A stretch of DNA of 64,000 nucleotides from Planctomycetota bacterium (GTDB lineage Bacteria; Planctomycetota; B15-G4), in NCBI GenBank assembly GCA_029259695.1, contig JAJDEQ010000056.1, positions 30,746 through 94,745 of the forward strand, in the 5' to 3' direction. The notes beneath the pieces are model-generated. The model was not told the DNA's origin and did not search any database. It saw only the letters and a list, made by a program, of their open reading frames with translations. Made by a program: the position numbers and the translations under genes. Shown piece by piece: positions 26,363 to 42,183 of this stretch (position 1 is its first letter; each line of letters opens with the position of its first letter).

Positions 26363-26642
26363 GGGAACGCTTCTCTCTTCCAGGGACGAAGGGGCCGTGT
26401 CCGCGCGTCGGAGGGGCAATCGGTGGGGACGTCGCGCGAGCCTCGCGATGCCAGAGGAGGCCGAGGCAGAATCTGTCTGCTTTCGCCCGCTCTCTGCCGC
26501 ATCGAAGCACGCCTTCATCGACAGCTGGCAGCGGGCGCTGTAGCTCGCCGCGCCGTCGATCGCGGGCAGGGAACGCGTCTTCGCATCCCACATCGAACGA
26601 TGTCGATATAGCGCGTCGGGTGTCGACGAGTGCACGTCGCTC

Positions 26643-26710
26643 GGGGGGTGTCGCGCGGGGGTGTCGCGCGGGGGTGTCGCACGGGGGTGTCGCACGGGGG
26701 GCGTCGCGCG
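26643..26710. repeat. Intergenic 13-bp tandem repeat, 5 copies, consensus GGGGGTGTCGC(G/A)C
   Basis: Read directly: copies at 26644-26656, 26657-26669, 26670-26682, 26683-26695 and 26696-26708 (last copy degenerate, GGGGGGCGTCGCG). Lies 17-84 nt downstream of the kinase stop (26727) and ~280-350 nt upstream of the secreted-protein start (26362), both on the - strand. Confidence 0.9.
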
Positions 26711-26726: not shown

Positions 26727-29363
26727 TCAGTCCTCGTCGAGTGCGCTCAGCATCGACTGGCAGGACGAGATCAGCGCGCGCTGGCCGGTCGTGCGCTCGC
26801 AGTCGCTGCCGAGACGAGCCGCGTCGGTTCGGATCGCCCGTTCGAGCAGGTCGCGCGCGCGCGCTCCCGCTGCGGGATCGTCCTTTCGCCGGGAGAGCGT
26901 CACGAGTCCCTGGGCCGCGTCGTGCAGCACGGCCGTCTGGCTGCCGTTGAGTTCGATCGCGCGGACCATGGGGACCAGGTAGGCGTCGATGTCATCGCTG
27001 CTGAGACTCTGCGGTGATCCGCGCAAGGCGACCTGCTCGCCACGCAGCGCTCGTCCCAGGGCGAAGGCGGCGCGCCAGCAGTGCGGGTCGAGGTCGATGG
27101 CGGCCTGGGCGTGTTCGGCCGCTTGACGCAGGAGCGCGCCGGGGTCATCGGCCCTCGCCGCGAGTCGGCGTGACGCCCGGGCCAGACCCAGCTGCCCCAG
27201 CAAGGGCGCGGCGTTCGGTTGGATCAGCCGCTCGAAGCAGTCTCGTCCGTACTCGTACCAGTCCAGGGCGTCGGCCCGGGCCTGGTCGGCGGCGGCGGAC
27301 TCGCCCCCGGCCGACAGTCGCTGCGCATCGGCCTCGAACTGCTCTCCGGCCTGCAGCGCCCGCGTGCCGCACCAGGCGACGACCTGGGGCGGGGTCGAGT
27401 CGTCGAAGTCGCGACGGCGGTGGGCCACGAGGGCTTGGGGCGCGCCGCGCAACTGCAGGTAGCGGTCGCGCAGGTCGAGCACGCGGCCCGTCTGCGCCGG
27501 ATCGTCGTCGGCCACGTCGAGGGCGCGCTCGGCGATGGCCCAACGGCCGGCCTCGCGGGCGATGACGTGCAGCGCCAGATTGGCGTCGGCGTCGTCCGGC
27601 TTCCATTTGATGAAGTCGTCGAGGTAGTCCTGCGCCTCGGTGAAGCGGCACTGCTGGACCAGCAGCTGGGCCAACTCGAGGTTGAGCTGGTCGCGGTCCG
27701 CGTCGGGCAGACGCCCGGCGGCGACGAAGGCCGCGCGGGCGTCGTCGGCCCGGCCCAGGTCCCGATACAGGTCGCCGATCAGGCGCCAGTCGGCCCAGCC
27801 GGCGTCGGCGCTCGAACGTTCCAGGTCGGCAGCGGCCCGGCGGGCTTCGTCTTCGCGCCCGAGGGTCACGTGGATCGCCAGACGCAGCGCGTCGTGCACG
27901 GCCCGCTGGTCGCCGGCGTCGGTCTCGTCGGCCGCGCGGGTCCAGCTCTCGGCGACCGTCGGTCGCTCTCGCTTGAGGTAGGCGTAGGCCAGCAGCATCC
28001 GGTCCTCGAGACCGAAGCGCTCGCCCCACGCGGTCTCGTAACCCACCAGATCGCCCACGTCGATGCGGTCGCCCACCGACTCGCGTCGGACGGCGGTGGT
28101 CAGCGCGCCGCGGTCGGTGCTGTGGAGTTGGGCCGTCTTCTGTTCGTGGATCCCGAGCACGGCGACCGCGCCCAGGCCCAGGGCCAGCCCCCACGCGGGC
28201 AGGGCGCCCCAGCGTCGCGCGCGGGCCAGGCGCACGCCCAGCAGCGAGAGCGGCCAGGCGAGCAGCAGGGCGCTCGCGGCGGCGAGCCCCAGGCGCAGAT
28301 CGTGGGTGTTCACGTCGCTGGCCGCGCGGCCCGAGAGCCAGAAGTCCAGTGCGAACCAGGCGGTGGGGACCAGCAGCGCCACGACCGCCAGGGTGGAGGT
28401 CGCCAGCAGCTTGAGCGAGCGGAACGAGCGTCCCACCACGCTGAGGGGACGGGCCTCGGTGGACTCGCCCGCCAGGAAGCGCCCCAGGTCGGCGGCGAAA
28501 TCCGCCGCGCTGGCGTAGCGGTCGTCGGGGGACTTCTCCAGCGCCTTGAGGCAGACGGCCTCGAGGTCGGCGTGCACACCCGGCTGGATCTTGCGCGGCG
28601 GCTTGGGCGCGCGGGTGAGGATGTCCAGGAACATGGACTGCATGCTGTCGCTGGCGAAGGGGACCCGGTTGGTGAGCAGGCGATAGAGCAGCGCGCCCAG
28701 GCTGTAGACGTCGGTGCGCGCGTCGACCCCGTCGGGCTTGGCCTGGATCTGCTCGGGGCTCATGTAGTGCGGTGTGCCCATGACCGCACCCGTGCGCGAC
28801 AGCCCCAGCTTGTCCTCCAGCCGCGCCAGGCCGAAGTCGGAGATCTTGGGGATTCCCGTCTGCGTCATGAGCACGTTGGCCGGCTTCATGTCGCGGTGGA
28901 TGATCTTGTGCTCGTGGGCGTGCTGCAGGCCGTCGGCGAGTTGACGCACGATGCCGGCCGACCACGAGCAGTGGTTGATGTCGGTCTGCTGCACGGCCAG
29001 CCGGCGCTGCTCGCAGATGTCCTCCAGGCTGCCGCCGTCCACGAACTCCTGCAGCAGCAGGTGGTGTCCGTGGGCCTCCTCCAGGCCGAACGCAGCCACG
29101 ATGTTCTGGTGGCTCAGGCGTGCGGCGGCCTCGGCCTCGCGGTGGAAACGGTCGACCTGTTCCTGGGTGAAGGCGACCTCCCGTGGCAGCACCTTGACCG
29201 CCACGCGGCGGTCGATCGACACCTGGTGGCCCGCGAACACCACGCCCTGCGCGCCCCGGCCGATCTCGTCGCCGAGCACCAGGTCGCCGAATCGCGCTCC
29301 GGTCTCGAGCGCCGGCGCCGCGGGGGTGCTCTGGTCCTCGTCCTGCCCGGTTTCCTCACTCAC
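26727..29363 (-). CDS. Membrane-spanning Hanks-type Ser/Thr kinase with C-terminal TPR-like domain (paralog A)
   Basis: 'IGRGAQGVV', 'VAVKVL', 'HRDMKPANVL', 'DFGLA', 'YMSPEQ'. Three hydrophobic segments follow the kinase domain ('LATSTLAVVALLVPTAWFALDFWL', 'LGLAAASALLLAWPLSLLGV', 'ALPAWGLALGLGAVAVLGI'). Start is uncertain: GTG 29363 was chosen for N-terminal length parity with paralog B, and the track ORF extends to 29525 through C/W/H-rich codons. Confidence 0.85.
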   Translation of the reverse strand: MSEETGQDEDQSTPAAPALETGARFGDLVLGDEIGRGAQGVVFAGHQVSIDRRVAVKVLPREVAFTQEQVDRFHREAEAAARLSHQNIVAAFGLEEAHGHHLLLQEFVDGGSLEDICEQRRLAVQQTDINHCSWSAGIVRQLADGLQHAHEHKIIHRDMKPANVLMTQTGIPKISDFGLARLEDKLGLSRTGAVMGTPHYMSPEQIQAKPDGVDARTDVYSLGALLYRLLTNRVPFASDSMQSMFLDILTRAPKPPRKIQPGVHADLEAVCLKALEKSPDDRYASAADFAADLGRFLAGESTEARPLSVVGRSFRSLKLLATSTLAVVALLVPTAWFALDFWLSGRAASDVNTHDLRLGLAAASALLLAWPLSLLGVRLARARRWGALPAWGLALGLGAVAVLGIHEQKTAQLHSTDRGALTTAVRRESVGDRIDVGDLVGYETAWGERFGLEDRMLLAYAYLKRERPTVAESWTRAADETDAGDQRAVHDALRLAIHVTLGREDEARRAAADLERSSADAGWADWRLIGDLYRDLGRADDARAAFVAAGRLPDADRDQLNLELAQLLVQQCRFTEAQDYLDDFIKWKPDDADANLALHVIAREAGRWAIAERALDVADDDPAQTGRVLDLRDRYLQLRGAPQALVAHRRRDFDDSTPPQVVAWCGTRALQAGEQFEADAQRLSAGGESAAADQARADALDWYEYGRDCFERLIQPNAAPLLGQLGLARASRRLAARADDPGALLRQAAEHAQAAIDLDPHCWRAAFALGRALRGEQVALRGSPQSLSSDDIDAYLVPMVRAIELNGSQTAVLHDAAQGLVTLSRRKDDPAAGARARDLLERAIRTDAARLGSDCERTTGQRALISSCQSMLSALDED

Positions 29364-29755
29364 GGCGGCATGATAGACGAGCAGCGGCCGCCTCCGGCGC
29401 CCGCCCCACCCGGCTTCCGATCCCGGGGTACACTGCCAGGTGTCGCGATCCGAGTGGGAGGTCGGGCCGCGGCAGTGGAAGAAGACGTCAGGAGAAGAGT
29501 GCATGCCGTTCGCGCCCGCCCCCACGGGTCGCGCCGCCGGGTCATGGGATGCCCCGGGCGGTCCTCCGTACCTGCGCCCGCCGTGGTCGGGTGCGGAGTC
29601 CGGTGACGCTTCTGTCTCGCCTCGTTTTCGGCCTTCGTCCCCCCGCGCGCTGCCCTTGATCAGAAGGTGAGAGCCTTGGATCCAGGTCGGCGCACTCCGA
29701 AACGCGGCATCCGGCAGCGCGGTCGCGCTGCCGCCGCCGGAAGGATCACGTCGCG

Positions 29756-32700
29756 ATGAACCGCCCCCGCCCCCGTGTCTTGCAGTGTCTGGTGGCTCCG
29801 TCCCCCGGCGCGCCCGTCCCCCCGCCCCGGCTCGAGAGTGCTCGGGGAGCGGACGGGCTGCCGCGGCGCCCCGACCGTGGCGCCCCGTGGCTGCGGGCGG
29901 CGACGACGGCTCTGGCGCTGTGCCTGCTGACGACGGTCGGAACGGCCCAGCTGTCCGGTGAGGTCGCCGGGCAGCAGAAGCTCGGACCGTTCGACGGCTT
30001 CAGCGGTGCCGTGCTGTGCAACGCCGATCGCCTGGGTGGCGCCGTGGCCAACGTCGGTGACGTGAACGGTGACGGCGTGGTCGACCTGGCCCTGGGCATG
30101 CCCGGCGACAACGGACAGGGTGCGCCGGACTTCGCTGATCGGGGCGCGCTCTGGGTCGCCTTCATGCGCGCCGACGGCGGGCTGTCCGGCCGCCGACTGG
30201 TCGCGGACGAACTGGGCGGCTTCGGGCCCGGGCTCGACGACGGCGACGAATTCGGCGCGGCCCTCGCCGGCCTGGGCGACCTCGACGGCGACGGTGTGCC
30301 CGACGTCGCGGTGGGCGCTCCCGGCGACGATGACGGCGGCGTCGACCAGGGCGCGCTGTGGGTGCTGTTGCTCGAGGTCGACGGCAGCGTCAAGTCGCGC
30401 TCCAAGATCTCGGCCACCGCCGGCGGACCGGCGTTCCCCGCGCTCGCGCCGGGCGACGGGTTCGGCACCGCGCTCACGGCCGTGGGTGACGTCAACGGCG
30501 ACGGGGTGGTGGACCTCGTGGTCGGCGCGCCGGGCGACGACGTCGCCGCCGCGGGCGCAGGCGCCGTGCACCTGTTGTTCCTGGACGCCGGCGGAGGCGT
30601 GGTCGCCGCCCAACGCATCACCGCGGGCGAAGGTGGGTTCGTCGGTCCGCTGGGATCGGGCGCCCGCTTCGGATCGTCGGCCGCCGAGCTCGGGGACGTG
30701 GACGGGAACGGCACGGGCGAAGTGGCCGTGGGCGCCGTGGGTGACGGCGTGACCGACACCGGCGCGGTGTGGGTGCTCTCGCTGGATGTCTTCGGCAACG
30801 TGGTGGACGAACACCGCATCGCGGCGGGCGAGGGCGGTTTCGGCGGCGCGCTGGCCGCGGGCGATCGGTTCGGCGCCGCGCTGGCGGCCACCGGTGACCT
30901 GAGCGGTGACGGCTTCACCGAACTGGCCGTGGGCGCGCCGGGCGACGGCACGTCGGGTCCCGGTCGCTCCGGCGCGGTGTGGGTGGCCCTGCTCGCCGCG
31001 GACGCCCAGGTGAAGTCCGAGGTCAAGATCGCGGCGGGCCAGGGGGGCTTCGACGGCAGCCAGACCATCGCCACCGGCAACCCGCTCGAGTTCGGCGCGG
31101 CCCTCGCGCCCCTGGGCGACCTGGACGGTGACCAGGTGGTGGACCTCGTGATCGGCACGCCCTGGGACGAGTTCCTGCTGGGCCCGCAGACCCAGTTGGG
31201 CGCCGCGTGGGTGGTGTTCATGGAAGGCGTGCCGCCCCAGACCCCGTACTCGCCGCCCAACGTGGGCGGCCCGATCCCGGGGCGCGCGGGGCGCAGCGCG
31301 CTCGTGCTGCCGCCCGCGCTGCCCGATGACGGGAGCACGCCCGACGACCTGATCGAGGAGCCGATCGTCGTCACGCCGCGCAACGACGGCGGCAGCCTCA
31401 CGACCCAGGGCATCAGCGCCCTGGCCGGAGGGGAACTGGCGGTCACGCTCACGGGCGAGTTCAGCACGGGCGTGAACCCCAGCATGGCGGCGACGGCCGA
31501 CTTCGACGGAGACGGAGCCCCGGACGTCGTGGCGGCCAACCAGGGTTCGGACAGCTTCACCGCCCTGATCGGCAACCCCGACCAGGGTCCGATCTTCGAG
31601 TCGATGGGTGAGACGGCCGTGCAGGACTCCGAACCCCTGGCCATCGTGGCCGGCACGCTCGGTGCGGCCGGCGCCGCGGGTGTGGCGCTGGTGGCGGAGA
31701 AGGGCGTGTCGACCTTCAGCTTCGACCCCGGGGCGCCGACCTCGTTCAGCTTCTCGTCCTTCACCGCGGTCGACGACGGGCTCGACCTCGACCTGGGCGA
31801 CGTGACCGGTGACGGGCTGGCCGACATCGTCACCGCCACGGGCGCTGTGGCCGTGGGTGGCGTGGAGAGCGGCGCCGCGGTCGTGCTGCAGGGCGAGCCG
31901 GGCGGTGGTTTCACCGAGATCGGCTCGTTCGCCGAGGGTCACGCGGTGGCGTCGGTGCGCCTCTCGGACTGGAACAACGACGGCAACCTCGACGCGCTGA
32001 TCGCGGTGCACGAAGCAACCGGCGGCCCCGTAGGCGAACCGCAGGGCCTGGTGCAACTGCACCTGGGCGACGGTGCCGGCGGCTTCCAGCTCTCCGCCGA
32101 GGTCGCCTTCCCCAGCCGCGACGGCACCCATCCCACCTTCGCCGACGTGGAGGACGTGAACCGCGACGGCTTCGTGGACGCTGTCTTCACCCAGTCCGAC
32201 AACCGCGCCTTCCCCGTGGATGCGTTCGCCGACGAACAGCCACCGATTGCCGTCGTCGTGCTGATCAACGACCAGGCCGGGGGCTTCCTGCAGGAGAGCG
32301 TGATCGCCACGGCCTACGTGGGCAAGGGCGTCACCCCGTTGCTGGGCAACGTGGTCGATTTCCAGGACGGCGCCGGCACGGTCGACCTGGTCGTGGTCTT
32401 CTACAACGACACGAGCGCCGGGGGCGGCATGCCGTCGGGTGGCGGGACGACGTTCCAGTCGTTCGTGGTCGTGCTGCAAGGCGACGGCATGGGCAACTTC
32501 GTCGATCCCAACCCGATCCCGGCCGGCGACGGACCGGGCAACGGCGACGTGGGCGAGCTGGGCGAAGTGGGCGCCGACGGGGGCGGGGCGGGGAACGCAC
32601 CGGACCTGTTGTTCCCCGACGGGCCCGGCAACCAGGTGATCGTGCTGCTCGGCAACGGCGACGGCACCTTCCGCGACGACGTGCCCCCCGTTCCCAACGT

Positions 32701-34138
32701 CGATGAACTCGACGCCGAACAGCTCGGGCCGGACTGGGTCGGCGGCCCCCGCGCGTTGCGGCTCGACGCCCTCGACGACGACGGCATCTCCGACCTCGTC
32801 GTGCTCAACCAGTGGGACGAGGTCGTGCCCGGGCCTCCGGGCCTGGTCGGTGCGGGCAGCCAGCAGGTGCTGGCCAGCCTCACGCTGTTCCTCGGCGCCG
32901 GCGAGGGCGAGTTCGTGCGCACGCAGTACGTCCCGCTGGAGCAGAGCGGTGAGTTCGCCCTGGGCGACGTCACCGGCGACGGCCTCACCGACGTGGTGGT
33001 GACCCAGCGCATCGGTGCGGGCGGCGCCCGGGTCGTGCTCGTGTTCCCGGGCGACGGCACCGGGCGTGTGGGTGACCCGACCGAACTGCGCCTGCCCCTC
33101 AGCAAGCAGCTCAGCGGGGGCCTGGCCCTGTCCGACGTGGACGACGACGGCGACCTGGACGTGATCACCTCGTGCACCTTCCAGTCCGGTTTCCTGGCAC
33201 TGGGCGACGGGGGCGCCGACGGGGCGCTGGCCGTCTTCGAAAACGAAGGTGACGGGTTCGTCGTGCGCACGTTCGTGATGGGCGCCGCATGGAGCGAAGT
33301 GCGCAGCCTGGAACTGGCGGACGCCGACGGCGACGCCGCGCCCGACGTGTTCATGGGCGAGCTCGAGGGACGCTTGTTCGTCGCGCTGGCCGACGGCTCG
33401 GGCGGTTTCGAGCCGGCCGTGCTCGACGGCGTGTCGGCCGACGTGGGCGGCGGCGCCCTGGGCGTGGGCGACCTCAACGGCGACGGGTTGACCGACGTCG
33501 TGTCGGTCCAGGACGCGACCAACGGCGAACTCGACCAGGCCTTCGTGCGCACGCTGCTGGCCCAGGGTGAGGGGCGCTTCGCGGTGGGCCAGGTGCCGGG
33601 CTTGCAGGCCACGGGCCTGAGCGGCTCGCTGCGTCCGCTGCTGGCCGACCTGGACGACGACGGCGCCAACGACATCGTGCTCGTGCACGGCGACGCCGGT
33701 TCGGTCTCGGTGCTGCTCAACGAACTCAACACGTTCGAGGAGTTCGGCCCGGGCAAGCCGGGGTCGGGCGGTTTCGTGCCGCGCATCGCGGGCCGCGGGT
33801 ACACCACCCTCGGCGGCCGGGTCGAGATCGAGATCAGCGACGTGCTGGGTGGCGCCACCGCGCTGTTGTGCGTGGGCATCGGCCGGGCCGACCTGCCCGA
33901 AGAGCCCTACCTGGCGATCGGCTCGCTGGCCTTCGACTCGTCGCTGCAGGTCAGCGGCCCGAAGGGTGTGCCGGGTGCCGGCGGCCTGACCTTCGACGGC
34001 ACCGTGCGCGACGTGCCCGGCTTCCTGGGCGTCGAGATCGTGCTGCAGGTCGTCGTGTTCGACCCGGGCGCCGACACGTTGCCCGGTCCGCCCGGCCTGG
34101 CCCTGAGCAACGGGTTGTCCGTGACCATCGTGCAGTGA
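29756..34138 (+). CDS. Giant (1460 aa) FG-GAP / VCBS (integrin-alpha-like) repeat surface protein
   Basis: GGAAGGA lies 10 nt upstream of ATG 29756. Hydrophobic signal-like 'AATTALALCLLTTVGTAQ'. More than 15 FG-GAP cores, for example 'GDVNGDGVVDLALGMPGD', 'GDLDGDGVPDVAVGAPGDD', 'GDVNGDGVVDLVVGAPGDD', 'GDLSGDGFTELAVGAPGDG', 'DFDGDGAPDVVAAN', 'DVDDDGDLDVIT'. Confidence 0.85.
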   Translation: MNRPRPRVLQCLVAPSPGAPVPPPRLESARGADGLPRRPDRGAPWLRAATTALALCLLTTVGTAQLSGEVAGQQKLGPFDGFSGAVLCNADRLGGAVANVGDVNGDGVVDLALGMPGDNGQGAPDFADRGALWVAFMRADGGLSGRRLVADELGGFGPGLDDGDEFGAALAGLGDLDGDGVPDVAVGAPGDDDGGVDQGALWVLLLEVDGSVKSRSKISATAGGPAFPALAPGDGFGTALTAVGDVNGDGVVDLVVGAPGDDVAAAGAGAVHLLFLDAGGGVVAAQRITAGEGGFVGPLGSGARFGSSAAELGDVDGNGTGEVAVGAVGDGVTDTGAVWVLSLDVFGNVVDEHRIAAGEGGFGGALAAGDRFGAALAATGDLSGDGFTELAVGAPGDGTSGPGRSGAVWVALLAADAQVKSEVKIAAGQGGFDGSQTIATGNPLEFGAALAPLGDLDGDQVVDLVIGTPWDEFLLGPQTQLGAAWVVFMEGVPPQTPYSPPNVGGPIPGRAGRSALVLPPALPDDGSTPDDLIEEPIVVTPRNDGGSLTTQGISALAGGELAVTLTGEFSTGVNPSMAATADFDGDGAPDVVAANQGSDSFTALIGNPDQGPIFESMGETAVQDSEPLAIVAGTLGAAGAAGVALVAEKGVSTFSFDPGAPTSFSFSSFTAVDDGLDLDLGDVTGDGLADIVTATGAVAVGGVESGAAVVLQGEPGGGFTEIGSFAEGHAVASVRLSDWNNDGNLDALIAVHEATGGPVGEPQGLVQLHLGDGAGGFQLSAEVAFPSRDGTHPTFADVEDVNRDGFVDAVFTQSDNRAFPVDAFADEQPPIAVVVLINDQAGGFLQESVIATAYVGKGVTPLLGNVVDFQDGAGTVDLVVVFYNDTSAGGGMPSGGGTTFQSFVVVLQGDGMGNFVDPNPIPAGDGPGNGDVGELGEVGADGGGAGNAPDLLFPDGPGNQVIVLLGNGDGTFRDDVPPVPNVDELDAEQLGPDWVGGPRALRLDALDDDGISDLVVLNQWDEVVPGPPGLVGAGSQQVLASLTLFLGAGEGEFVRTQYVPLEQSGEFALGDVTGDGLTDVVVTQRIGAGGARVVLVFPGDGTGRVGDPTELRLPLSKQLSGGLALSDVDDDGDLDVITSCTFQSGFLALGDGGADGALAVFENEGDGFVVRTFVMGAAWSEVRSLELADADGDAAPDVFMGELEGRLFVALADGSGGFEPAVLDGVSADVGGGALGVGDLNGDGLTDVVSVQDATNGELDQAFVRTLLAQGEGRFAVGQVPGLQATGLSGSLRPLLADLDDDGANDIVLVHGDAGSVSVLLNELNTFEEFGPGKPGSGGFVPRIAGRGYTTLGGRVEIEISDVLGGATALLCVGIGRADLPEEPYLAIGSLAFDSSLQVSGPKGVPGAGGLTFDGTVRDVPGFLGVEIVLQVVVFDPGADTLPGPPGLALSNGLSVTIVQ

Positions 34139-34151
34139 GGAGCGACTCGCC

Positions 34152-35963
34152 GTGACCACCGACGCACACCCCTTCCCGGCCGCCGTGAGCGAACGCTTCG
34201 ACGTGCGCGAGGAGCTGGTGCGCACGGAGCTCGAGGTGCTCGCGCGGGCACAGGATCGCACCCTGGGGCGCGAGGTCGTGCTCAAGGCCCTGGGGCCCGC
34301 GGCCGTCGAGGCGCTCGCGTCCCGTGAGGATCGCGAGCGGGCGTTGCGCGAGGCGCGCGCCCTGGCGCGGATCGATGGCGACGGCGTGGTGCGCCTGCTG
34401 GACGTGCTCGAGACGGAGCGCGGCCCGGTGCTGGTGCTCGAGCCCTTCGCGGGGGAGAGCCTGGCCGAGCGGCTCGCGCGGCACGCGGGTGAACCGATGG
34501 ACCCGGCCGACGTGCGTCGCCTGGCGTTCGACCTGGCCACGGCCCTGGAGAGCGTGCACCGCGCCGGCGTGGTCCACCGCGGGCTGTCGACGGGCAGTGT
34601 GCTGCTGAGCGCGGCGGGTCGACCGCGGCTCACGGGCTTCAGCTTCGCCCGCTGGGATCGCGCCACCGGCATGACCTCGATCGACTACGGTCGCGCGTCG
34701 TCGGATGCGGCCGGCAGCGAGGCCGTCGTGCTGCGACCGACGCACCCGGCCCCGGAGCAGGTGGCCGGCCAGCCGGCCGACGCGCGTTCCGATGTCTTCG
34801 CCCTGGGCTGCGTGCTGTACGAGTGCCTCACGGCGCGCAACCCGTTCCCCGCCGAGGACCCCGTCGATCGCGTCGCACCGCCGCCGGCGCACAAGCTGGT
34901 GCGGGACGTGCCCCGCGACCTGTCCGAACTGGTGGAGCGCTGCCTGGCGCGCAACCCGCTCAACCGGCCCCAGTCCGCGGGGGAGGTCGCGACCCAGTTG
35001 GCTGCGTTCGCCGACGAGTCACCCGCTGAGGCCGGCGAACGCCGTCATGCCTGGTGGCGCCCCGACGTGATGCAGTTGGCGCTGGCAGGCGCCGCCCTGT
35101 TCGCCGTGTGGGTGTTCGCCTTGCGCGGTGACGGAGAGGACGGCGAGCGTGGCGTCCAGCTGCTCGACCAAGACGCAGCCAGCGCAACCGTCGGGAGGAG
35201 CGGTGCGCCTGCCCTGCAAGCGTCCTACGTCGCCTCCCACGCGTTGCTGATCGGCATCGGCGAGGTGTACGCCGACCAGCGCTTCCCCGCACTCAGCAAC
35301 GCCGAGGCCGACGTCGCCGCGCTCGCTGCAAGGCTCGACGAGATGACCTGGGAGAACTGGCAGACGACCACGCTCACCGGAGCGGCGGCCACGCGCCAGG
35401 GCATCCTCAGCGCGCTGCGCGACGTGGAGCATCGTGCCGGGCCCGACGACCGGGTGTTCATCTACTACGCGGGGCACGGTGAGCCCCACGAACGGGCCAG
35501 CGAGAGCGGCTGGATCATCCCCGCGGGCGCTCGCCGCCAGGCGGAGGATCCCAGTCGCGCCGACTGGATCCGCTTCGACGAGTTCAGTCGCTTCTTCGAC
35601 GAGTCGGAGGCCAAGCACATCCTGGTGGCCATGGACTGTTGCTACAGCGGGCGCCTGGCCGCGCCCCGCTCCGCCACGTCCACGCGCTACAGCGAACGCT
35701 TCCTGCGCAGCAAGGCCCACGTCGTGATCACCTCCGGGCGTCGCTTCGAGGTGGTGTCGGACGGTGTGGCCGGCGCCCACTCGCCCTTCACCCGCGCCTT
35801 CCTCGACGCGCTGTCGCGCACCGACACCGAGGCCATGACCTCCAGTGCGCTGTACAGCGAGATCGCGGACGCGTTCGTCCAGGAGGGCATCGGCCAGACG
35901 CCGCAGTTCGCCTACCCGCCACGGCAGTCCCTGGGTCAGTTCGTCTTCTTCCTGCAGCCGTGA
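34152..35963 (+). CDS. Pseudokinase - TM helix - caspase-like (peptidase C14) fusion protein, 603 aa
   Basis: The N-terminal protein-kinase fold has degenerate catalytic motifs: no G-loop glycines, 'HRGLSTGS' in place of HRDLKPxN, and 'GFS' in place of DFG, while 'VVLKAL' and 'APE' are retained. TM helix 'VMQLALAGAALFAVWVFAL'. The C-terminal caspase domain keeps the His/Cys dyad ('FIYYAGHGE', 'VAMDCCYSG'). GTG start lies 13 nt after the FG-GAP stop. Confidence 0.8.
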   Translation: MTTDAHPFPAAVSERFDVREELVRTELEVLARAQDRTLGREVVLKALGPAAVEALASREDRERALREARALARIDGDGVVRLLDVLETERGPVLVLEPFAGESLAERLARHAGEPMDPADVRRLAFDLATALESVHRAGVVHRGLSTGSVLLSAAGRPRLTGFSFARWDRATGMTSIDYGRASSDAAGSEAVVLRPTHPAPEQVAGQPADARSDVFALGCVLYECLTARNPFPAEDPVDRVAPPPAHKLVRDVPRDLSELVERCLARNPLNRPQSAGEVATQLAAFADESPAEAGERRHAWWRPDVMQLALAGAALFAVWVFALRGDGEDGERGVQLLDQDAASATVGRSGAPALQASYVASHALLIGIGEVYADQRFPALSNAEADVAALAARLDEMTWENWQTTTLTGAAATRQGILSALRDVEHRAGPDDRVFIYYAGHGEPHERASESGWIIPAGARRQAEDPSRADWIRFDEFSRFFDESEAKHILVAMDCCYSGRLAAPRSATSTRYSERFLRSKAHVVITSGRRFEVVSDGVAGAHSPFTRAFLDALSRTDTEAMTSSALYSEIADAFVQEGIGQTPQFAYPPRQSLGQFVFFLQP

Positions 35964-36024: not shown

Positions 36025-38817
36025 CTACTGCCCCGAAGCGAGTTCGCGCAACTCGTTCACCGTCTGGACGCGGGCGGCGTAGCGGGCGTCGTCTTCGTGC
36101 AGGACGTCGAGAGCGGCGGTGGCGTGGAGCAGGGCCGCTTCGTAGTCGCTGGTCTTGAGGTGCAGGCTGGCGAGGGTGTCGAGGGTGGCGGAGAGGCGGT
36201 TGCGGTCGGCGGCCGAGGGGGGCGGGGCGCCTTCGGGCCGCTCCCACAGGCGTTCGAGCAGGCGCACGGCCTGGCGGGCGAAGGCCAGGGCTTCGTCGAG
36301 GGTGGCGCGGTCGCCGGTGTCGTCGTAGATCAGGCCCAGCGTGTACGCGGCGTTGTTGAGGGCCTCGATACTCGTGCCGTTCATGCGCAGGGCGTCGCGC
36401 AGGTGGCCGGCGTAGATCTGCAGGGCGTCGAGCGGGAAGTCGCCGATGTCGCCGTGTTGTCGTTTGAGTTGCTTGAGGCGGGCCAGGCCCAGGTTGAAGT
36501 GGCCTTCGAAGTACTCCGGGTCGAGGGCCACGGCGCGCTCGGCGCAGGCGACCGCTTCGGCGAGCAGCTCGTCGTCGCGCTCGGGTTGCAGTTCGGCTTG
36601 TTGCACCCGTACCGAGCTCAGCCCGATCTGGCCCAGGAGGGGGAGCCGCTCGGGTGCGGTGAGGGAGCCGTAGAGTTCGCCGGCCAGGTCGAGCCAGGGG
36701 GTGGCCTTGTCGCGGTAGCGGGCGGCCTCGTCGTCGTAGCCTGCGTCGCGGTAGGCCACGGCGTAGCGCGCCGGTGACGTGCTCTTGCCGTAGGCCTCGT
36801 GGGCGCACCAGGCCACGACCTGGTCGTCGTCGGCGTGTTCGCGACTGGCGCTGGCGAGCCAGGCGGCGGCTTCCTGCTCCAGGCCCTGGACGTCGAGCAG
36901 TTCGTAGCGCGCGCGCACGGCCATTTCGGTGGGCGTGTCGGGTTCCGCTTCGAGCGCCGCCAGTGCGTCGGACGCCTCGTCCCAGTGCCCCCGAGCGGCG
37001 GCGATGCGGAAGGCGAGCCACAGGCTCTGCAGGGTGTCGGTCTTGAACTCGCGGTAGTTGTCGAGGCGTCGGTCGGCGAGTTCGAGGTCGCGTAGCTCGA
37101 ACGAGATGCGCGCGAGCACGTAGTTGAGCTGGTCCCGGTCGGCGTCGGGCTGCCGCGCGGCGCGCTCGAAGGCGCTGTGGGCCTCGTTGTCCCAGCCCGC
37201 CTCGTCGTACACGAAGCCGAGACGCATCCAGTCCTCCCAGGACAGGTCGTCGGCGAGCGTCTCCAGGCGGGCGGTGGCGTCCTGCACGGTAGCCTCGTCG
37301 CCCAGGGCGTCGGCGGTGGCGGAGCGCAGGGCCTGGTACAGGGCCTCGGCGTCGGGGTCGCGGGCCAGGCGTTCGGTCCAGTCCCGGGCGAGCAGCGGGC
37401 GGCCGCGCACCAGGTAGGCGCCGGCGATGGCGGCGATATCGTCCTGGTCCAGGTGGTCGCCCCAGTTGGCGACGAAGGCCTCGATGTCGGCCAGGTCGCG
37501 GCGGTCCTCGGTGATGGAGAGCACCATGGCCTCGCTGGCCTTCTCGGCCAGGGACGTGCGGCGTTGGTCGAGCACGTGACGGGTGCCGAGCGCGCCGAGC
37601 CCGAGGGCCACGACGACGGCCGCCGGCGCGGCCCACGCCCGGCCCCGGGACAGGCGTCCCCCCAGGACCGTGAGCGGCCACGCGACGAGCAGGGTGGCCG
37701 CGACGATCGCGCCCAGGCGCGCGGTCTCCCCCGCTTGCGAAGGCCCGGCCCAGGGTGCGAGCAGCGCCAGGTCGAACGCGAACCAGGCCACGGCCACCAG
37801 CAGCGCGGTGAGCGCCAGCGACGACGTGGCCAACCGGCGCATGGAGCGCACGGCGCGGCCGACCATGCTCACGGGGCGCGCCAGGGTGGGCTGCTGGTGC
37901 AGGTAGCGCTGCAGGTCCGCGGCGAACGCCTCGGCGTCGGCGTAGCGGTCGTCGGGGGACTTCTCCAGCGCCTTGAGGCAGACCGCTTCGAGGTCGGCGT
38001 TCACGCCCGGTTGCAGCTTGCGCGGTGAGGCGGGTGCGCGGGTGAGGATGTCGATGAACACGCCCTGGGCCGTCTTGGCGGTGAACGGCACGCGGTGCGT
38101 GAGCATGCGGTAGAGCACCGCGCCCAGGCTGTACACGTCGGTGCGCGCGTCGAGAGTGCCGCGGGCCGGGTCGACCTGCTCGGGGCTCAGGTAGTGCGGC
38201 GTGCCCATCAGCGCACCGGTGCGTGACAGGCCGAGCTTGTCCTCGACCTTGGCCAGGCCGAAGTCGGTCAGCTTGGGTTCACCCGTCTCGGTGAGCAGCA
38301 CGTTGGCGGGTTTCACGTCCCGGTGGATCACGTTGTGCACGTGGGCGTGGGCCAGCGCATCGGCGAGGCGCGCGGTGACGGACGCCGACCATTCGCAGTG
38401 CGTCGCGTCGGTGCGCTCTTCCTTCCAGCGCCGCTCCTCGAGTTCGTCCTCCAGGCTGCCGCCGGTGACGTACTCCTGCACGATGGCGTGGTGACCGCCC
38501 AGCTCCATCAGGCCGTGGACGGACACGATGCTCGGGTGAGCCAGGCGTCCGGCCGCTTCGGCCTCGCGCTTGAAGCGCTCCACCTGTTCGCCCGTGAAGG
38601 TGATCTCGGCCGGCAGGATCTTCACGGCCACCTGGCGGTCGAGCGACTCCTGGTGCGCCTCGAAGACCACGCCTTGGGCGCCCCGGCCCAACTCGCGCAC
38701 CAGGGTGAAGTCGCCCCAGCGCGCGCCGGGCTCGATGCGCGTGCCGGGATCGCCTGCGGCTTCGGCCGCCAGCGTGGGTTCCCGTTCCCCGTCCCGCGTT
38801 GGATCCACCTCGGTCAT
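36025..38817 (-). CDS. Membrane-spanning Hanks-type Ser/Thr kinase with C-terminal TPR-like domain (paralog B), 930 aa
   Basis: 'LGRGAQGVV', 'VAVKIL', 'HRDVKPANVLL', 'DFGLA', 'YLSPEQ'. Three TM-like segments follow the kinase domain. Long stretches are near-identical to paralog A at DNA level (for example 37940-37985 versus 28512-28557). Confidence 0.9.
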   Translation of the reverse strand: MTEVDPTRDGEREPTLAAEAAGDPGTRIEPGARWGDFTLVRELGRGAQGVVFEAHQESLDRQVAVKILPAEITFTGEQVERFKREAEAAGRLAHPSIVSVHGLMELGGHHAIVQEYVTGGSLEDELEERRWKEERTDATHCEWSASVTARLADALAHAHVHNVIHRDVKPANVLLTETGEPKLTDFGLAKVEDKLGLSRTGALMGTPHYLSPEQVDPARGTLDARTDVYSLGAVLYRMLTHRVPFTAKTAQGVFIDILTRAPASPRKLQPGVNADLEAVCLKALEKSPDDRYADAEAFAADLQRYLHQQPTLARPVSMVGRAVRSMRRLATSSLALTALLVAVAWFAFDLALLAPWAGPSQAGETARLGAIVAATLLVAWPLTVLGGRLSRGRAWAAPAAVVVALGLGALGTRHVLDQRRTSLAEKASEAMVLSITEDRRDLADIEAFVANWGDHLDQDDIAAIAGAYLVRGRPLLARDWTERLARDPDAEALYQALRSATADALGDEATVQDATARLETLADDLSWEDWMRLGFVYDEAGWDNEAHSAFERAARQPDADRDQLNYVLARISFELRDLELADRRLDNYREFKTDTLQSLWLAFRIAAARGHWDEASDALAALEAEPDTPTEMAVRARYELLDVQGLEQEAAAWLASASREHADDDQVVAWCAHEAYGKSTSPARYAVAYRDAGYDDEAARYRDKATPWLDLAGELYGSLTAPERLPLLGQIGLSSVRVQQAELQPERDDELLAEAVACAERAVALDPEYFEGHFNLGLARLKQLKRQHGDIGDFPLDALQIYAGHLRDALRMNGTSIEALNNAAYTLGLIYDDTGDRATLDEALAFARQAVRLLERLWERPEGAPPPSAADRNRLSATLDTLASLHLKTSDYEAALLHATAALDVLHEDDARYAARVQTVNELRELASGQ

Positions 38818-38847: not shown

Positions 38848-41800
38848 TCAGCGCTCGGGCTCGACGGTCACGTCGTCGATCCACACCGAACCGCTGTGGA
38901 CGTCGAAGAACAGCCAGGACTGCAGGGGCTCGCCGGCCGCATCCACGGCTGCGAGCACGCCCACCGGGACCACGAACTCGACCGTCTCCCAGGTCTCGAA
39001 GCCGTCCGAACGGGCGTCGCCCAGTTCGGTGAGGGCCGCCGCGCCGAAACGAGCGGCGCCGAGGCTCATGCGCAGCTTCGCGCCGGGGCCCGCCCAGACC
39101 CGCGCGCGCACTCGCAGCGGGACGTCCACCGGCAGGGGCTCCGACACGAGCGTGTAGGCCTGCCTGGCCGTGGCCGAGGGGTTGTCGATGCGCAGGGAGC
39201 GCTGGCCGGCGTAGGCCCAGGTGTCGTCGAGGGTCACGAGACCGAGCTCGGCCACGCCGAAGTGGGGCGGCACCTGGCGCCAGTCGTTGCCCGCGGCGAG
39301 TTCGGCCGGCAGGGGGGCCGCCTCGAACGTGCCCTGGCTGAGCAGGTCGTGGATCAGCATGTCGCGGCGCGAGCGCAGTCGCAGGGCGTCGACGCGCAGC
39401 TTCGGTTCACCGTTCACCAGCGAGATCGCCACGCGCAGGCCGGCCTGCGCGTCCTGTGGCGTGAGTTCGAACTCCGCGCTGGTGGTCTCCCAGCCGAACA
39501 GTCCCGTGGGCCGGAGCGAGGCGAGCACGTCGCCGTCGTGCAGGGATTCGACGCGCACTTCCGAGCCCGTGGGCGACGTGCTGCGCAGCCAGGTCGAGAG
39601 CAGGTAGGGGCCGGGCGCGAGGTCGGTCAGCTCCTGCCACAGGACGACGTCGCCGCGGCGCGAGTCGAGTTGCAGCGAGCTGTCGCCGGCGGCCGGGTCG
39701 TCGCCCAGCAGCTTGGCGCCGCCGAGGCCGTCCTTGGTCCAGGCCTCCAGGTCGTGCTCGAAGGCCCCGCCGAGCGGCAGGGAAGCGCGCAGGGGGGACG
39801 GCGCGCGCAGCGGCAGCACGCTGGCTGCGTTGAGCGTGACCTGGCCGCCGCCCTCGATGTCGACGCGCAGGGCGAAGGTCGCCAGCGAGCCGCCGTCGGT
39901 GTCGCGCGCCTCGAAGCTGAAGTCCTTCGCGCGAGCCGAGTCCAGCTCCAACGCCCCGGCCACGTTGCCCGTGAGTTCGTTGACGAACAGCAGGCGTCCG
40001 GGCGTGGAGGCGGCCGCGGTGCCCATCACGAGCAGGCGTTCACCGCCCGGCGTCGCGCCGAAGCGCGCCACCACGGTGCCGTCGGACGCGGGCGACGTGT
40101 CGAGCACCAGGTTCGGCAGCAGCCGCGCGTCCCACGCGCTGCCGGCGATCACCTCGACGTTGTCGACGGTCAAGGCGCCCCCTCCGTTGCTGCGGATCTC
40201 GAGCAGCCCGTCCACGTTCGCACCGGACGGGACCGTGCCGCTGGCGGTGGCGTAACCGCCGGGGCCGTCGCGCAGCGGCGTCTTGGCGACGGTCTGAGCC
40301 GTGCCCGCTACGGAGAGTCGGAGCTGGGCGGTGCCGACGCCGGACGTCGTGTCGTGCACGAGCAGGTGGTAGCGCTCGCCGGCCACCAGCGGGCCGATCG
40401 TCTGCTCGACGCGACTCGCGCCGCCCGCGGGCAGCCGCAGCGCGGCCCGGCCGGAGACGGCGTCGGTGCTGTGCTCGACGTCGCCCACGACCTGCCAGCC
40501 GACCGGGAGGTCGTCCTCCCAGCGCTCGAACCCGGCGTGCTCGGCCAGGTTGTCGCTGGGCGTGGAGAGCAGCTCGAGCACGTTGGCCGTGGCCACCTCA
40601 CCGTCCTCGAAGGGCACGGGCAGGTCGAAGAAGATCGGCCACTGCATGCTGCCGGCGTTGAGCACCGTGCCGAAGTCGTGGTGTGACGAGATCGCGGTGA
40701 ACCCGTCGCGCGCCGGCGCGTCGGCCAGCACCATCAGGTTGCCGGGGACGCCGGCCGTCGTGTTGGGGCTGCGGCGCCCGTCCACGAGCTCCATGTGGGC
40801 CCCGTCGACCTCGCCGCCGACGATCGTCATCCACCCGCTCACGGACGTGCCGCCCACGTCGACCGTGGCGTGCTTGATGCCGAACAGGTCGCCGCCCTGC
40901 AGGCCGAGTCCGGCGAACAGCGGGTGCTCGGGTTGCAGCACGCGGTAGTAGCCGTAGCGGTCGGCGTACTTGTAACAGGCCGTGATGCCGCCGTAGATGT
41001 ACTCGTGGCAGAAGTTCGTGAGCAGCGTGCTCCAGCCCGCGTTGCGCCAACCCAGCCCCAGCGTGCGGTCGGGCGGGTCGAGCACCGGCGGTCCGGCCCA
41101 GAGCGTGGTCACCAGCGCGCGCTCCTCGGCGTCGGTGCTGTCGAACAGCGGGTCGGAGGTGGGCTGCTTGTGACAGCGGATGGCGTTGTCGCCGTCCTCG
41201 AAGCGCACCTGCCAGTAGCAGGAGTTGCCGGCCATCACGAACACCGCGCCCCCGTTGCCGATGAAGGCGTCGACGGCGTCGCGCATGCTGCGCGACCAGT
41301 ACTCGTGGTGGCCGAACAGCACGAGCAGGCGGTAGGGGTCGAGCAGGCCCGGGTCGAGGTGCAGGTCCACGTCGCTCGCGTACTCGACCCCGTAGCCGGC
41401 CTGGTCGAACCAGTCGATCAGGTGCGGGTACCACTGGCCCGCCGGGGACGTGGGATCGATCGGGCGCGCCCACGACACGATCGGTTCGCGCGGCCCGTAG
41501 GCGCTCGCGTACAGGCTGGCGCCGCCCCAGGCGTTGTAGGCGGTGATGGTGCAGTCGGGTCGCAGCGAGATGATCGAGGTCGTGCTGCCGGGTTCGTCCT
41601 CGCGCACGATGAACGGGATGTCGAACAGGTCGGGTTCGGCCCGCGGTCCCGCGCGCAGCCGGGCGACGTACAGGCCCGACTTCCAGTCGCTCGGCACGTC
41701 GTGTTCGTAGCTGGTGGCCCAGCCCGCGCCGACGGCCCACGCTTCGGGTGGGATCGGCTGGGTGCCGCCTGGCAGGCCGGTGACCTGCCCCACGTGGGTC

Positions 41801-42183
41801 TCGCCGGCGCCGATGCGCAGGAAGTCGATCGCGTAGGTCGGGTGGGTGGTGGAGACCGCGAAGCCGATGCGCTCGCCCTGGGCGACGCTGAGACGGTCGG
41901 GGTGTCCCTCGAGCGGTCCGGGTGCGAACGAACCGTCACCGGCCGGGCCGGACTCCTCGAGCGCTGCGTCGCCGGCGAGGAACACGTCGAGCACCTGCTG
42001 CGGGCTCGGTGTGTGAGCCTGCGCCTGCATGCGCAGCCCTTCGGCGAAGCGCAGCGGGTCGTCCACCGTGACGGCGCGTTCGGCGGCCGGGAGCAGCGGA
42101 CGGACTTCGTCCCCGGAGGTCGTACGGCAGCCTGCACCCGTCAAGGCGAACGCACACAGCGTCAGCCCGACGCCGAGGCCCAC
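38848..42183 (-). CDS. Lipoprotein (1111 aa) with N,N-dimethylformamidase-beta-subunit-like domain and three C-terminal carbohydrate-binding-module-like domains
   Basis: Lipobox 'LTGAGC' after a GTG start. 'TAYNAWGGASLYAS' and 'GHHEYWSRSMRDAVDAFIGNGGAVFVMAGNSCYWQVRFE' match my recollection of the DMFase large-subunit-like family (not verified). Three ~150-aa modules end 'VDNVEVI', 'LRVDALRL' and 'VWIDDVTVEP', typical of CBM4/9- or galactose-binding-like folds. Confidence 0.75.
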   Translation of the reverse strand: MGLGVGLTLCAFALTGAGCRTTSGDEVRPLLPAAERAVTVDDPLRFAEGLRMQAQAHTPSPQQVLDVFLAGDAALEESGPAGDGSFAPGPLEGHPDRLSVAQGERIGFAVSTTHPTYAIDFLRIGAGETHVGQVTGLPGGTQPIPPEAWAVGAGWATSYEHDVPSDWKSGLYVARLRAGPRAEPDLFDIPFIVREDEPGSTTSIISLRPDCTITAYNAWGGASLYASAYGPREPIVSWARPIDPTSPAGQWYPHLIDWFDQAGYGVEYASDVDLHLDPGLLDPYRLLVLFGHHEYWSRSMRDAVDAFIGNGGAVFVMAGNSCYWQVRFEDGDNAIRCHKQPTSDPLFDSTDAEERALVTTLWAGPPVLDPPDRTLGLGWRNAGWSTLLTNFCHEYIYGGITACYKYADRYGYYRVLQPEHPLFAGLGLQGGDLFGIKHATVDVGGTSVSGWMTIVGGEVDGAHMELVDGRRSPNTTAGVPGNLMVLADAPARDGFTAISSHHDFGTVLNAGSMQWPIFFDLPVPFEDGEVATANVLELLSTPSDNLAEHAGFERWEDDLPVGWQVVGDVEHSTDAVSGRAALRLPAGGASRVEQTIGPLVAGERYHLLVHDTTSGVGTAQLRLSVAGTAQTVAKTPLRDGPGGYATASGTVPSGANVDGLLEIRSNGGGALTVDNVEVIAGSAWDARLLPNLVLDTSPASDGTVVARFGATPGGERLLVMGTAAASTPGRLLFVNELTGNVAGALELDSARAKDFSFEARDTDGGSLATFALRVDIEGGGQVTLNAASVLPLRAPSPLRASLPLGGAFEHDLEAWTKDGLGGAKLLGDDPAAGDSSLQLDSRRGDVVLWQELTDLAPGPYLLSTWLRSTSPTGSEVRVESLHDGDVLASLRPTGLFGWETTSAEFELTPQDAQAGLRVAISLVNGEPKLRVDALRLRSRRDMLIHDLLSQGTFEAAPLPAELAAGNDWRQVPPHFGVAELGLVTLDDTWAYAGQRSLRIDNPSATARQAYTLVSEPLPVDVPLRVRARVWAGPGAKLRMSLGAARFGAAALTELGDARSDGFETWETVEFVVPVGVLAAVDAAGEPLQSWLFFDVHSGSVWIDDVTVEPER

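Follow-up and report, generated by a model that had tools for sequence, protein, structure and literature searches.

A conserved Planctomycetota protein family joining a predicted pseudokinase, a transmembrane helix and an orthocaspase-like protease

Orthocaspases and other metacaspase-like peptidases of family C14, among them Microcystis MaOC1, GSU0716 (3BIJ), Yca1 (4F6O) and TbMCA2 (4AF8), have a common fold, a His-Cys dyad (SGHG and D-x-C-x-x-G motifs) and two acidic residues in the S1 pocket. All of these recur in the protein considered here, the product of a gene at positions 34152-35963 (plus strand) of a 64,000-nucleotide stretch of a Planctomycetota bacterium genome (the window; GenBank assembly GCA_029259695.1, contig JAJDEQ010000056.1, positions 30,746 to 94,745). 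Unlike the described proteases, this one has a predicted pseudokinase as its N-terminal partner, with a transmembrane helix between the two, and its identity to solved metacaspases is 14-20%. Membrane-anchored and multi-domain prokaryotic metacaspases have already been catalogued (PMC3501461); in the main text of that survey, "Pkinase" does not occur as a Pfam name, and "kinase" appears twice, both times on matters other than domain fusions.

In layout, the protein resembles the PknB-type receptor Ser/Thr kinases, in which a kinase domain, a transmembrane helix and an extracytoplasmic domain follow one another; PknB and PknA are also its nearest matches in sequence and structure, and residues of the PknB N-lobe interface are conserved. 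By contrast with these receptors, the kinase fold appears dead throughout the family, and the external domain would be a protease instead of a PASTA or other binding domain. The NCBIfam model for PknB/Stk1 PASTA kinases (NF033483) reaches 135 bits, over the kinase region only, against a cut-off of 450, and the protein is not a member. Bacterial pseudokinases have been catalogued as well: the families ActPs1-3 (including a MviN/MurJ-linked one), CP1, DYD, DLHK and GLW (bioRxiv 10.1101/2025.01.12.632604). As here, these are Hanks folds that lose the VAIK Lys, the HRD Asp and/or the DFG Asp, sit on membrane proteins and are presumed to be regulated by active kinases. The main text of this atlas contains neither the word "caspase" nor a caspase-linked family; because it is that main text which sets the two apart, the proteins described here could belong to a catalogued group such as CP1.

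No description of a family with the order pseudokinase, transmembrane helix, caspase was found in the searchable literature. A first-pass annotation of the window had called the architecture unusual: it is indeed undescribed there but it is not unique, since it recurs in at least 111 proteins, from Planctomycetota wherever a source is named. These carry only generic database labels and form a conserved family whose architecture is new and whose parts are of known kinds. The reading favored here is that they are membrane-anchored extracytoplasmic orthocaspases whose pseudokinase docks to partner kinases; the mechanism is one that we infer, and we hold belief and doubt in it to be evenly balanced.

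A kinase fold without kinase catalytic residues

Coordinates below are window positions, and locus (L) and protein (P) identifiers are labels of this analysis. The gene and its N-terminal half are laid out as follows:

34139-34142, plus strand: GGAG, a Shine-Dalgarno-like motif 9 nt 5' of the GTG (read directly from the sequence)
34152-35963, plus strand: gene encoding the predicted pseudokinase, transmembrane helix and C14 peptidase, 603 aa, GTG start (list of open reading frames [ORFs], third-position GC, Pfam, 111 full-length homologs)
34185-35036, plus strand: predicted pseudokinase domain with a Hanks/PknB-like fold, aa 12-295 (PknB alignment, Foldseek, predicted local distance difference test score [pLDDT] mostly >90)
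34575-34598, plus strand: degenerate catalytic loop HRGLSTGS, aa 142-149, against HRDVKPAN, with the catalytic Asp, Lys and Asn all replaced
34635-34643, plus strand: GFS, aa 162-164, replacing the Mg-binding DFG (alignments with the flanking kinases and PknB)
34674-34688, plus strand: activation-loop motif T175-S176-I-D-Y179, consensus [ST][ST]-hydrophobic-x-Y, a candidate phospho-acceptor

Is this a real gene, and is its architecture more than an accident? The third-position GC of the ORF is 0.90, typical for coding sequence in a window whose GC content is ~71% along its whole length. Pfam profiles match Pkinase at residues 37-274 (E 6.2e-25) and Peptidase_C14 at residues 363-586 (E 3.4e-11), both above the curated cut-offs. 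The AlphaFold2 model of the full-length protein, for which 50 homologs served as input, has a mean pLDDT of 86.9, with most of both domains above 90, a helix at residues 306-324 and a disordered linker at 326-350. Chance assembly is argued against by the 111 full-length homologs that share the architecture; together, ORF, codon composition, Pfam, model and homologs bear out the first-pass annotation in that a single real gene encodes a kinase fold, a transmembrane helix and a C14 domain.

The family was assembled in two ways. A word-indexed search returns ~54 full-length relatives, which are 35-50% identical and in which both Pfam domains recur; those with names are a "caspase family protein" or a "protein kinase" from Planctomycetota metagenome-assembled genomes (MAGs). 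An exhaustive hidden Markov model (HMM) search of 1.84 billion cluster representatives adds to these, and after re-alignment to the family HMM at least 111 proteins span the whole family profile, again under generic labels. The full-length loci recovered from GTDB species representatives all lie in Planctomycetota MAGs, and the family is restricted to this phylum wherever a source is named. A search with the caspase domain alone revealed no other N-terminal partners, whereas the exhaustive profile search did: the former gave mostly fragments and shorter generic C14 proteins and, among the matches listed, none longer than ~510 aa.

The kinase motifs were read from alignments with the two kinases encoded on either side of the locus and with Mycobacterium tuberculosis PknB, which aligns over residues 8-295 (HMMER, E 4e-25). 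The structural comparison concurs: PknB and PknA are the top Foldseek matches of the whole protein (target-normalized TM-score ~0.78), and the kinase fold is modeled with confidence. Within this fold, however, the catalytic motifs are degenerate, as the first reading of the sequence had proposed. The glycine-rich loop, GxGxxGxV by consensus, reads LVRTELEVL against LGRGAQGVV and contains no glycine at all; a 50-member alignment of the family likewise lacks the glycine-loop consensus, although a minority of its sequences have Gly at one or other place in the loop. The catalytic loop and the Mg-binding motif are replaced as listed above, and no shifted catalytic Asp, Lys or Asn is present in alignments to the two flanking kinases, PknB (HMMER) or 110 relatives. 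What this protein does retain, again in line with the earlier claim for the β3 Lys context and the APE motif, is Lys45 of β3 (VVLKAL) and APE (200-202), together with the αC Glu67.

The same pattern holds across the family. The whole triad (Lys, HRD Asp and DFG Asp) is kept in 0/111 members. The third HRD position (144) is Gly in 65, Asp in 21 and Ala in 18; Lys is absent among the residues listed for position 146, that of the catalytic-loop Lys; and the catalytic-loop Asn survives in 53/111. At the DFG position, 93 members have Gly, six Ser, five Ala and four Asp, so that the Asp is lost in 107/111, and the four that keep it are without the HRD Asp. The β3 Lys is kept in 63/111 and replaced by Glu, Val, Ser or Gln in 44/111, while the αC Glu is kept in 94/111. 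Despite the lost triad, conservation extends to the APE Glu, the HR dipeptide and the core of the fold. Judged by these alignments, then, the N-terminal domain is a pseudokinase in this protein and family-wide, as first suspected. Because no member keeps the kinase triad while the protease His and Cys are kept in 111/111, the family bears what reads as a signature of selection for a non-catalytic kinase fold joined to a catalytic protease, unlike a decaying gene.

Might the domain catalyze something else? CASK carries out Mg-independent phosphotransfer and SelO carries out AMPylation, and a non-canonical reaction of either kind could regulate the protease. Lys45 and Glu67 are kept here and in the fractions of the family just given, some members have the HRD Asp (21/111) or the DFG Asp (4/111), and one relative, P0309 (see below), places a near-canonical kinase on the same transmembrane-caspase chassis. 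But a full triad is found in none of the 111, the residues listed for position 146 do not include Lys, the loop has no glycine here (though Gly occurs at some positions in a minority of the 50 aligned relatives), the β3 Lys is replaced in 44/111, and no alternative conserved catalytic constellation is apparent; such activity is thus quite improbable.

If the fold does not catalyze, which of its surfaces are under constraint? Residues R15, L38 and D84 are the equivalents, in the HMMER alignment, of PknB R10, L33 and D76, which we take to be key residues of the back-to-back N-lobe dimer that serves allosteric activation; R15 is kept in 107/111 members and L38 in 103/111, and the D84 position holds Asp in 68 and Glu in 30. 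In the activation loop, which otherwise varies in length and sequence, position 175 is Ser or Thr in 104/111, position 176 in 110/111, and Tyr179 is kept in 70/111; this [ST][ST] motif is a candidate for phosphorylation in trans.

The protease domain and its predicted place across the membrane

The C-terminal half of the gene contains the following features:

35067-35123, plus strand: single transmembrane helix, aa 306-324, VMQLALAGAALFAVWVFAL (hydropathy, AlphaFold2 helix, all 111 members)
35148-35153, plus strand: Arg333-Gly334 in the juxtamembrane linker, following the helix at a median distance of 13 residues; candidate self-cleavage site (shedding or prodomain removal)
35235-35951, plus strand: peptidase C14 domain, metacaspase/orthocaspase-like, aa 362-600 (Pfam, PDB profile, AlphaFold2, Foldseek)
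35310-35312, plus strand: Asp387, acidic S1-pocket residue, paired with the Asp of "GCIND" in yeast metacaspase (HMM alignment)
35475-35477, plus strand: catalytic His442 of YYAGHG, paired with metacaspase "SGHG"
35634-35642, plus strand: Asp495-Cys496-Cys497, S1-pocket Asp and catalytic Cys497, in DCCYSG, which pairs with DSCHSG
35667-35672, plus strand: Arg506-Ser507, where a flexible loop follows catalytic Cys497; candidate site for maturation by p20/p10-type cleavage

In metacaspase alignments the family motifs pair as LPNAERD with LRGCIND, YYAGHG with HYSGHG, and DCCYGG with DSCHSG; it is the second Cys of DCCYSG, Cys497, that is the partner of the catalytic Cys in DSCHSG. The canonical His and Cys recognized in the first-pass annotation are invariant (His442 and Cys497 in 111/111 members). 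A profile of the C-terminal part finds in the PDB, in this order, yeast Yca1 and Candida CgMCA1, Arabidopsis metacaspase-4 and -9, Geobacter GSU0716, T. brucei MCA2 and MALT1. Whole-protein Foldseek gave kinase matches only, and the C-terminal part was therefore modeled alone to classify the protease: the separate AlphaFold2 model of aa 326-603 (pLDDT 88.5, predicted TM-score 0.86) matches MALT1, AtMC9, GSU0716, CgMCA1 and TbMCA2 (E 5e-12 to 1e-9), which places it in the caspase-hemoglobinase fold. GSU0716 itself is an uncharacterized structural-genomics protein. The top match, MALT1 (E ~5e-12), is a parallel, being an Arg-specific protease in which a non-catalytic N-terminal module could drive proximity; identity to MALT1 is ~15%, however, MALT1 is cytosolic and has death and Ig domains, and activation by dimerization is an analogy only.

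What would such a protease cut? The S1 pocket is acidic, with D387 and D495, unlike the Arg/Gln pocket of caspases. Residue 387 is Asp in 104 members and Glu in seven, and Asp495 is kept in 110/111; their equivalents in metacaspase structures presumably line the S1 pocket and confer Arg/Lys specificity. Characterized proteases of the MALT1/metacaspase type are known to cut after basic residues. Since both acidic positions are near-invariant, the enzyme is predicted to cut after Arg or Lys, as metacaspases do, and not after Asp. It is best named an orthocaspase or metacaspase-like protease; "caspase-like" describes its fold only.

Two conserved basic sites in the protein itself are candidates for self-processing, because the protease is predicted to cut after Arg. 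Position 333 is Arg in 85 members and Lys in two, and Gly334 is kept in 95/111, in a linker that is otherwise variable and has pLDDT <50. Position 506 is Arg in 88 and Lys in two of the 111, is followed by Ser, Gly or Ala in 85/111, and coincides with a local dip in pLDDT. The two, R333-G334 and R506-[SGA], resemble in position the sites at which metacaspases and caspases lose their prodomain or are cut between subunits, the conserved Arg sites corresponding in position to those of metacaspase autoprocessing.

Which side of the membrane does the protease face? The protein has exactly one hydrophobic 19-mer (mean Kyte-Doolittle 2.17), so the single helix named in the first-pass annotation stands, although its position shifts slightly, from 35068-35125 to 35067-35123. 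Such a 19-mer is present in all 111 members (mean 2.08). Averaged over the family, the 15 residues before it contain 3.2 Lys and Arg and have a net charge of +2.3, while the 15 after it contain 1.8 and have a net charge of -0.2; the preceding side is richer in Lys and Arg in 77/111 members, the following side in 12, and 22 are tied. By the positive-inside rule, this bias predicts an N-in/C-out topology, in which the pseudokinase is cytoplasmic and the protease lies beyond the membrane, and since a signal peptide is absent from the N terminus, nothing should carry the kinase fold out of the cytoplasm. The earlier proposal that the two domains lie on opposite sides of the membrane is therefore favored.

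The topology call uses hydropathy and the positive-inside rule only, and the 12 members with more Lys and Arg after the segment, together with the 22 ties, leave some room for a segment that does not span the membrane, or spans it in reverse, with both domains in one compartment. Yet the segment is found in 111/111 members, is helical in the AlphaFold2 model and has disordered linkers on either side, no signal peptide precedes it, and the difference in net charge is consistent family-wide; of the alternatives weighed here, this is the least probable, and very much so. The picture that computation gives is of a single-pass protein in which the helix separates a dead kinase fold from an intact C14 protease of the Arg/Lys type.

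Possible kinase partners in fusions and in neighborhoods

If the pseudokinase docks to active kinases, can such partners be seen? Two kinds of evidence bear on this: relatives in which kinases are fused to the family-type domains, and genes encoded nearby. The exhaustive profile search of cluster representatives returned these fusions and related architectures:

P0263, 957 aa: near-canonical kinase (LGAGGFGRV, VAIK, HLDIHTSN, DFG), family-type pseudokinase (HRGISAES, GFT), transmembrane helix and caspase
P0055, P0316 and P0317, 674-695 aa: canonical kinase (HRDLKxxN, DFG) and family-type pseudokinase (280-295 bits against the family profile)
P0286, 600 aa: pseudokinase and canonical kinase
P0309, 641 aa: near-canonical kinase (IGWGRACTV, VVIK, HRD...N, "DWS") on the transmembrane-caspase chassis
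P0325 and P0339, 1188 and 1130 aa: two kinase-like domains, transmembrane helix and a more distant C14 domain; the first domain of P0339 has HQD for HRD

Because these Rosetta-stone fusions join a canonical kinase to a family-type pseudokinase, they argue that this pseudokinase works with an active Hanks kinase, and they are the strongest link of the family to kinases. The architectures also suggest that the family may have arisen from a kinase-transmembrane-caspase ancestor. The gene for P0055 is complete, and its product terminates in a tail-anchor transmembrane helix and has no caspase; no separate caspase gene adjoins it, and a split system at that locus was set aside.

A kinase and a pseudokinase in tandem are known from JAK (JH1-JH2) and from plant tandem-kinase immune receptors, to which P0263, P0055, P0316, P0317 and P0286 can be likened; the relatives that join the two domains imply a comparable partnership here. 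In the window, however, kinase and pseudokinase are separate genes, the output would be an extracytoplasmic protease, and there is no evidence for common descent. As a side observation, P0055, P0316, P0317, P0286 and P0263 may themselves form a separate, likewise undescribed family of bacterial tandem kinase-pseudokinase proteins.

The fusions can also be read in the opposite direction. In HER3-type and KSR-type signaling, a pseudokinase acts through an active partner; by analogy, the external C14 domain may sense or cleave a ligand and the pseudokinase then allosterically activate a partner Hanks kinase, the protease being the input of an outside-in receptor. The layout is that of PknB-type receptor kinases (kinase fold, transmembrane helix, external domain), the N-lobe residues used in PknB for allosteric activation are conserved, P0055, P0316, P0317, P0263 and P0286 combine the pseudokinase with a canonical kinase, and P0055, as a kinase-pseudokinase-transmembrane protein lacking a caspase, implies a role for the pseudokinase module that does not depend on the protease. 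An invariant dyad and near-invariant S1 Asp residues in 111 members speak instead for real catalysis over mere binding, although catalysis could itself be the means of sensing, and the signal could run either way. This possibility ranks second to the favored docking model, and we consider it rather unlikely.

The second kind of evidence comes from the genes next to the locus:

29756-34138, plus strand: giant FG-GAP/VCBS-repeat protein, listed at 1460 aa from an uncertain start (Pfam FG-GAP_3, FG-GAP)
36025-38817, minus strand: canonical Ser/Thr kinase, 930 aa, downstream and convergent, with three hydrophobic segments and a TPR-containing C-terminal region
26727-29525, minus strand: paralogous Ser/Thr kinase on the upstream side of the FG-GAP gene, listed at 932 aa from an uncertain start, with three hydrophobic segments and TPR

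The FG-GAP protein begins with a hydrophobic, signal-like segment, and the stop codon of its gene (TGA, 34136-34138) abuts the GGAG motif of the pseudokinase-caspase gene. As GGAG sits directly after this TGA and 9 nt before the GTG, the two genes are probably co-transcribed and translationally coupled. The pair is bracketed by the two paralogous kinases, which are 45% identical, have canonical motifs and, after the kinase domain, continue with three hydrophobic segments and a ~500-aa TPR-containing region; given these three segments, the C-terminal regions of the kinases are probably on the protease side of the membrane.

How much of this arrangement is conserved? The closest relative, P0002 of locus L007 (48-50% identity), stands between a full-length ortholog of the FG-GAP protein (38% identity over ~1460 aa) and a full-length kinase-TPR ortholog in the same position and again convergent (43% identity over 908 aa). 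Because synteny persists at such divergence, the FG-GAP protein, the pseudokinase-caspase and the kinase-TPR protein may be a functional trio. A strictly conserved operon was considered and rejected: neighborhoods differ widely, and orthologous neighbors are present only in L007. Other loci have arrays of their own:

L004: kinase-FGE-sulfatase gene, 46 bp downstream of the family gene, same strand
L005: same-strand array of kinase-FGE-sulfatase, hypothetical, giant FG-GAP and family genes, with gaps of 13-76 bp
L006: same-strand array of family gene, DUF4384, hypothetical, giant FG-GAP and kinase-FGE-sulfatase genes
L007, L008 and L016: extra C14 genes adjoining the family member

In L005 the giant FG-GAP gene occupies the position that it has in the window, but its product is kin to the giant FG-GAP protein of L006, and neither is an ortholog of the window's protein; shorter FG-GAP genes (~750-790 aa) stand beside family members in L013 and L014, and only the L007 copy is an ortholog of the window's. 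Control of the pseudokinase-caspase by the flanking kinases, which had been raised as a possibility from the sequence of the window, has indirect support in the L007 trio, the same-strand clusters of L004-L006 and the kinase fusions.

Two recurrent neighbors can be noted in their own right. Large Ser/Thr kinases with a C-terminal FGE-sulfatase domain lie near family members at L004 9834-12779, L005 1-1832, L006 17229-17791, L009 253-3657 and L001 19446-21797, and DUF4384 proteins recur in L006 and L007. Published surveys list FGE-sulfatase and DUF4384 as frequent companions of bacterial C14 proteases and kinases.

The company of extra C14 genes (L007, L008, L016) and of the DUF4384 genes just mentioned would also suit another role, that of a suicide or defence effector directed at the envelope, in which a cytoplasmic trigger leads to the degradation of periplasmic or envelope proteins and thus to cell death or protection against phages or competitors; this would be compatible with either signaling direction. 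Bacterial C14 proteases are widely proposed to be cell-death or conflict effectors (PMC3501461). The protein has a sub-threshold match to the EACC1-associated caspase model (NF047832, 90.1 bits against a cut-off of 140, so that it is not a member) and matches the PADLOC "caspase" model (E 1e-15), a generic domain similarity; no EACC1 or STAND NTPase partner is seen in the neighborhood. A known defence system was sought with PADLOC-DB 2.0 and discarded: the matches to PD-T4-6, mad6 and PglW cover the kinase fold only, are generic, score higher for the ordinary flanking kinases, and come with no partner genes. Moreover, the neighbors are not genes of mobile elements or defence islands, and the family is represented by about one conserved gene per genome locus, with housekeeping neighbors in many members. 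We regard such a role as unlikely, somewhat more so than the receptor alternative.

The remainder of the window contains several other genes. Directly downstream of the 36025-38817 kinase and on the same strand, 38848-42183 (minus strand) encodes a 1111-aa protein with an N-terminal hydrophobic segment and a C terminus like the N,N-dimethylformamidase beta subunit (DMFA2_C, E 2e-60); 42293-43336 (minus strand) encodes a divergent MreB/actin-like protein of 347 aa (MreB_Mbl, E 6e-15, and also a "Salactin" model). The sole Pfam signal of a 1955-aa ORF at 11529-17396 (plus strand) is Baculo_PEP_C (E 4.5e-11, aa 649-742), perhaps a repeat or coiled coil. Upstream of the 26727-29525 kinase lie genes for large CarboxypepD_reg-like proteins, at 22922-26695 (minus strand) and 18633-21248 (plus strand), and a CarboxypepD_reg protein is also found at the edge of the L007 cluster.

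A possible relay from kinase to protease

How would a dead kinase fold control a protease on the other side of the membrane? In the favored model, the pseudokinase would be a docking, dimerization or phospho-acceptor module for active Hanks kinases, encoded nearby or fused to it, and would offer them the residues of the PknB-type back-to-back interface and the Ser/Thr motif of the activation loop. Pairing or phosphorylation in the cytoplasm would bring two chains together, and the external protease would thereby be dimerized and become active. Initiator caspases and the paracaspase MALT1 are activated by induced dimerization. The protease may then process itself at Arg333-Gly334, to be released from its anchor, and/or at Arg506-Ser507, to mature. 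It could also act on partners that are exported, for which the first candidates are the giant FG-GAP protein, coupled in translation, and the TPR or FGE-sulfatase portions that partner kinases would expose outside.

Several points weigh against this model. The assignment of the PknB interface combines a sequence alignment with background on PknB. Metacaspases are often monomeric and activated by Ca, and dimerization as the activating step is drawn from analogy only. In the AlphaFold2 model, the linker makes no contact with the active site that is predicted with confidence. The neighborhood link to kinases is suggestive rather than strong: a kinase gene of any kind lies within 10 kb at 11/17 family loci and at 3/12 control loci centered on unrelated Planctomycetota kinases, a marginal enrichment from small samples (one-sided Fisher p ~0.04), and with tblastn matches only the count is 9/17 (p 0.13). 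Loci of more distant members (L010, L013-L015, L017, L024) have housekeeping neighbors and no kinase within 10 kb. The window itself has a fourth kinase-like gene (3772-6216, minus strand), in which the kinase domain encoded at 36025-38817 has a tblastn match at 5023-5892; with kinases this dense in the genome, adjacency is less telling. Finally, every mechanistic step is a computational inference, and the signal could run inside-out or outside-in.

The fullest version of the model is a transmembrane relay from kinase to caspase, in which Hanks kinases pair with or phosphorylate the dead kinase, dimerization through the helix activates the Arg-specific protease, the protease is shed at Arg333, and exported proteins, the FG-GAP protein among them, are remodeled. 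We put this forward tentatively, as a chain of steps that is doubtful when taken whole, though more plausible than any of the alternatives discussed above.

Why does the family matter? Little is understood of bacterial pseudokinases or of bacterial caspase homologs, and a function has been demonstrated for almost none of them. The clean pattern seen here, with the kinase always dead and the protease always intact, together with the fusions to live kinases, leads to testable ideas on the pseudokinase as a docking or allosteric module, and the family offers a testable route to how an extracytoplasmic orthocaspase is controlled; the informative residues are R15/L38/D84, T175/S176, R333, R506 and C497. 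If true, the relay would be a bacterial form of inside-out proteolytic signaling that has no described precedent, and would give pseudokinases of bacteria a new role. In Planctomycetota, already of interest for the eukaryote-like complexity of their signaling, the family adds a kinase-pseudokinase-caspase module to the bacterial repertoire thought to be ancestral to parts of eukaryotic cell death and immune signaling.

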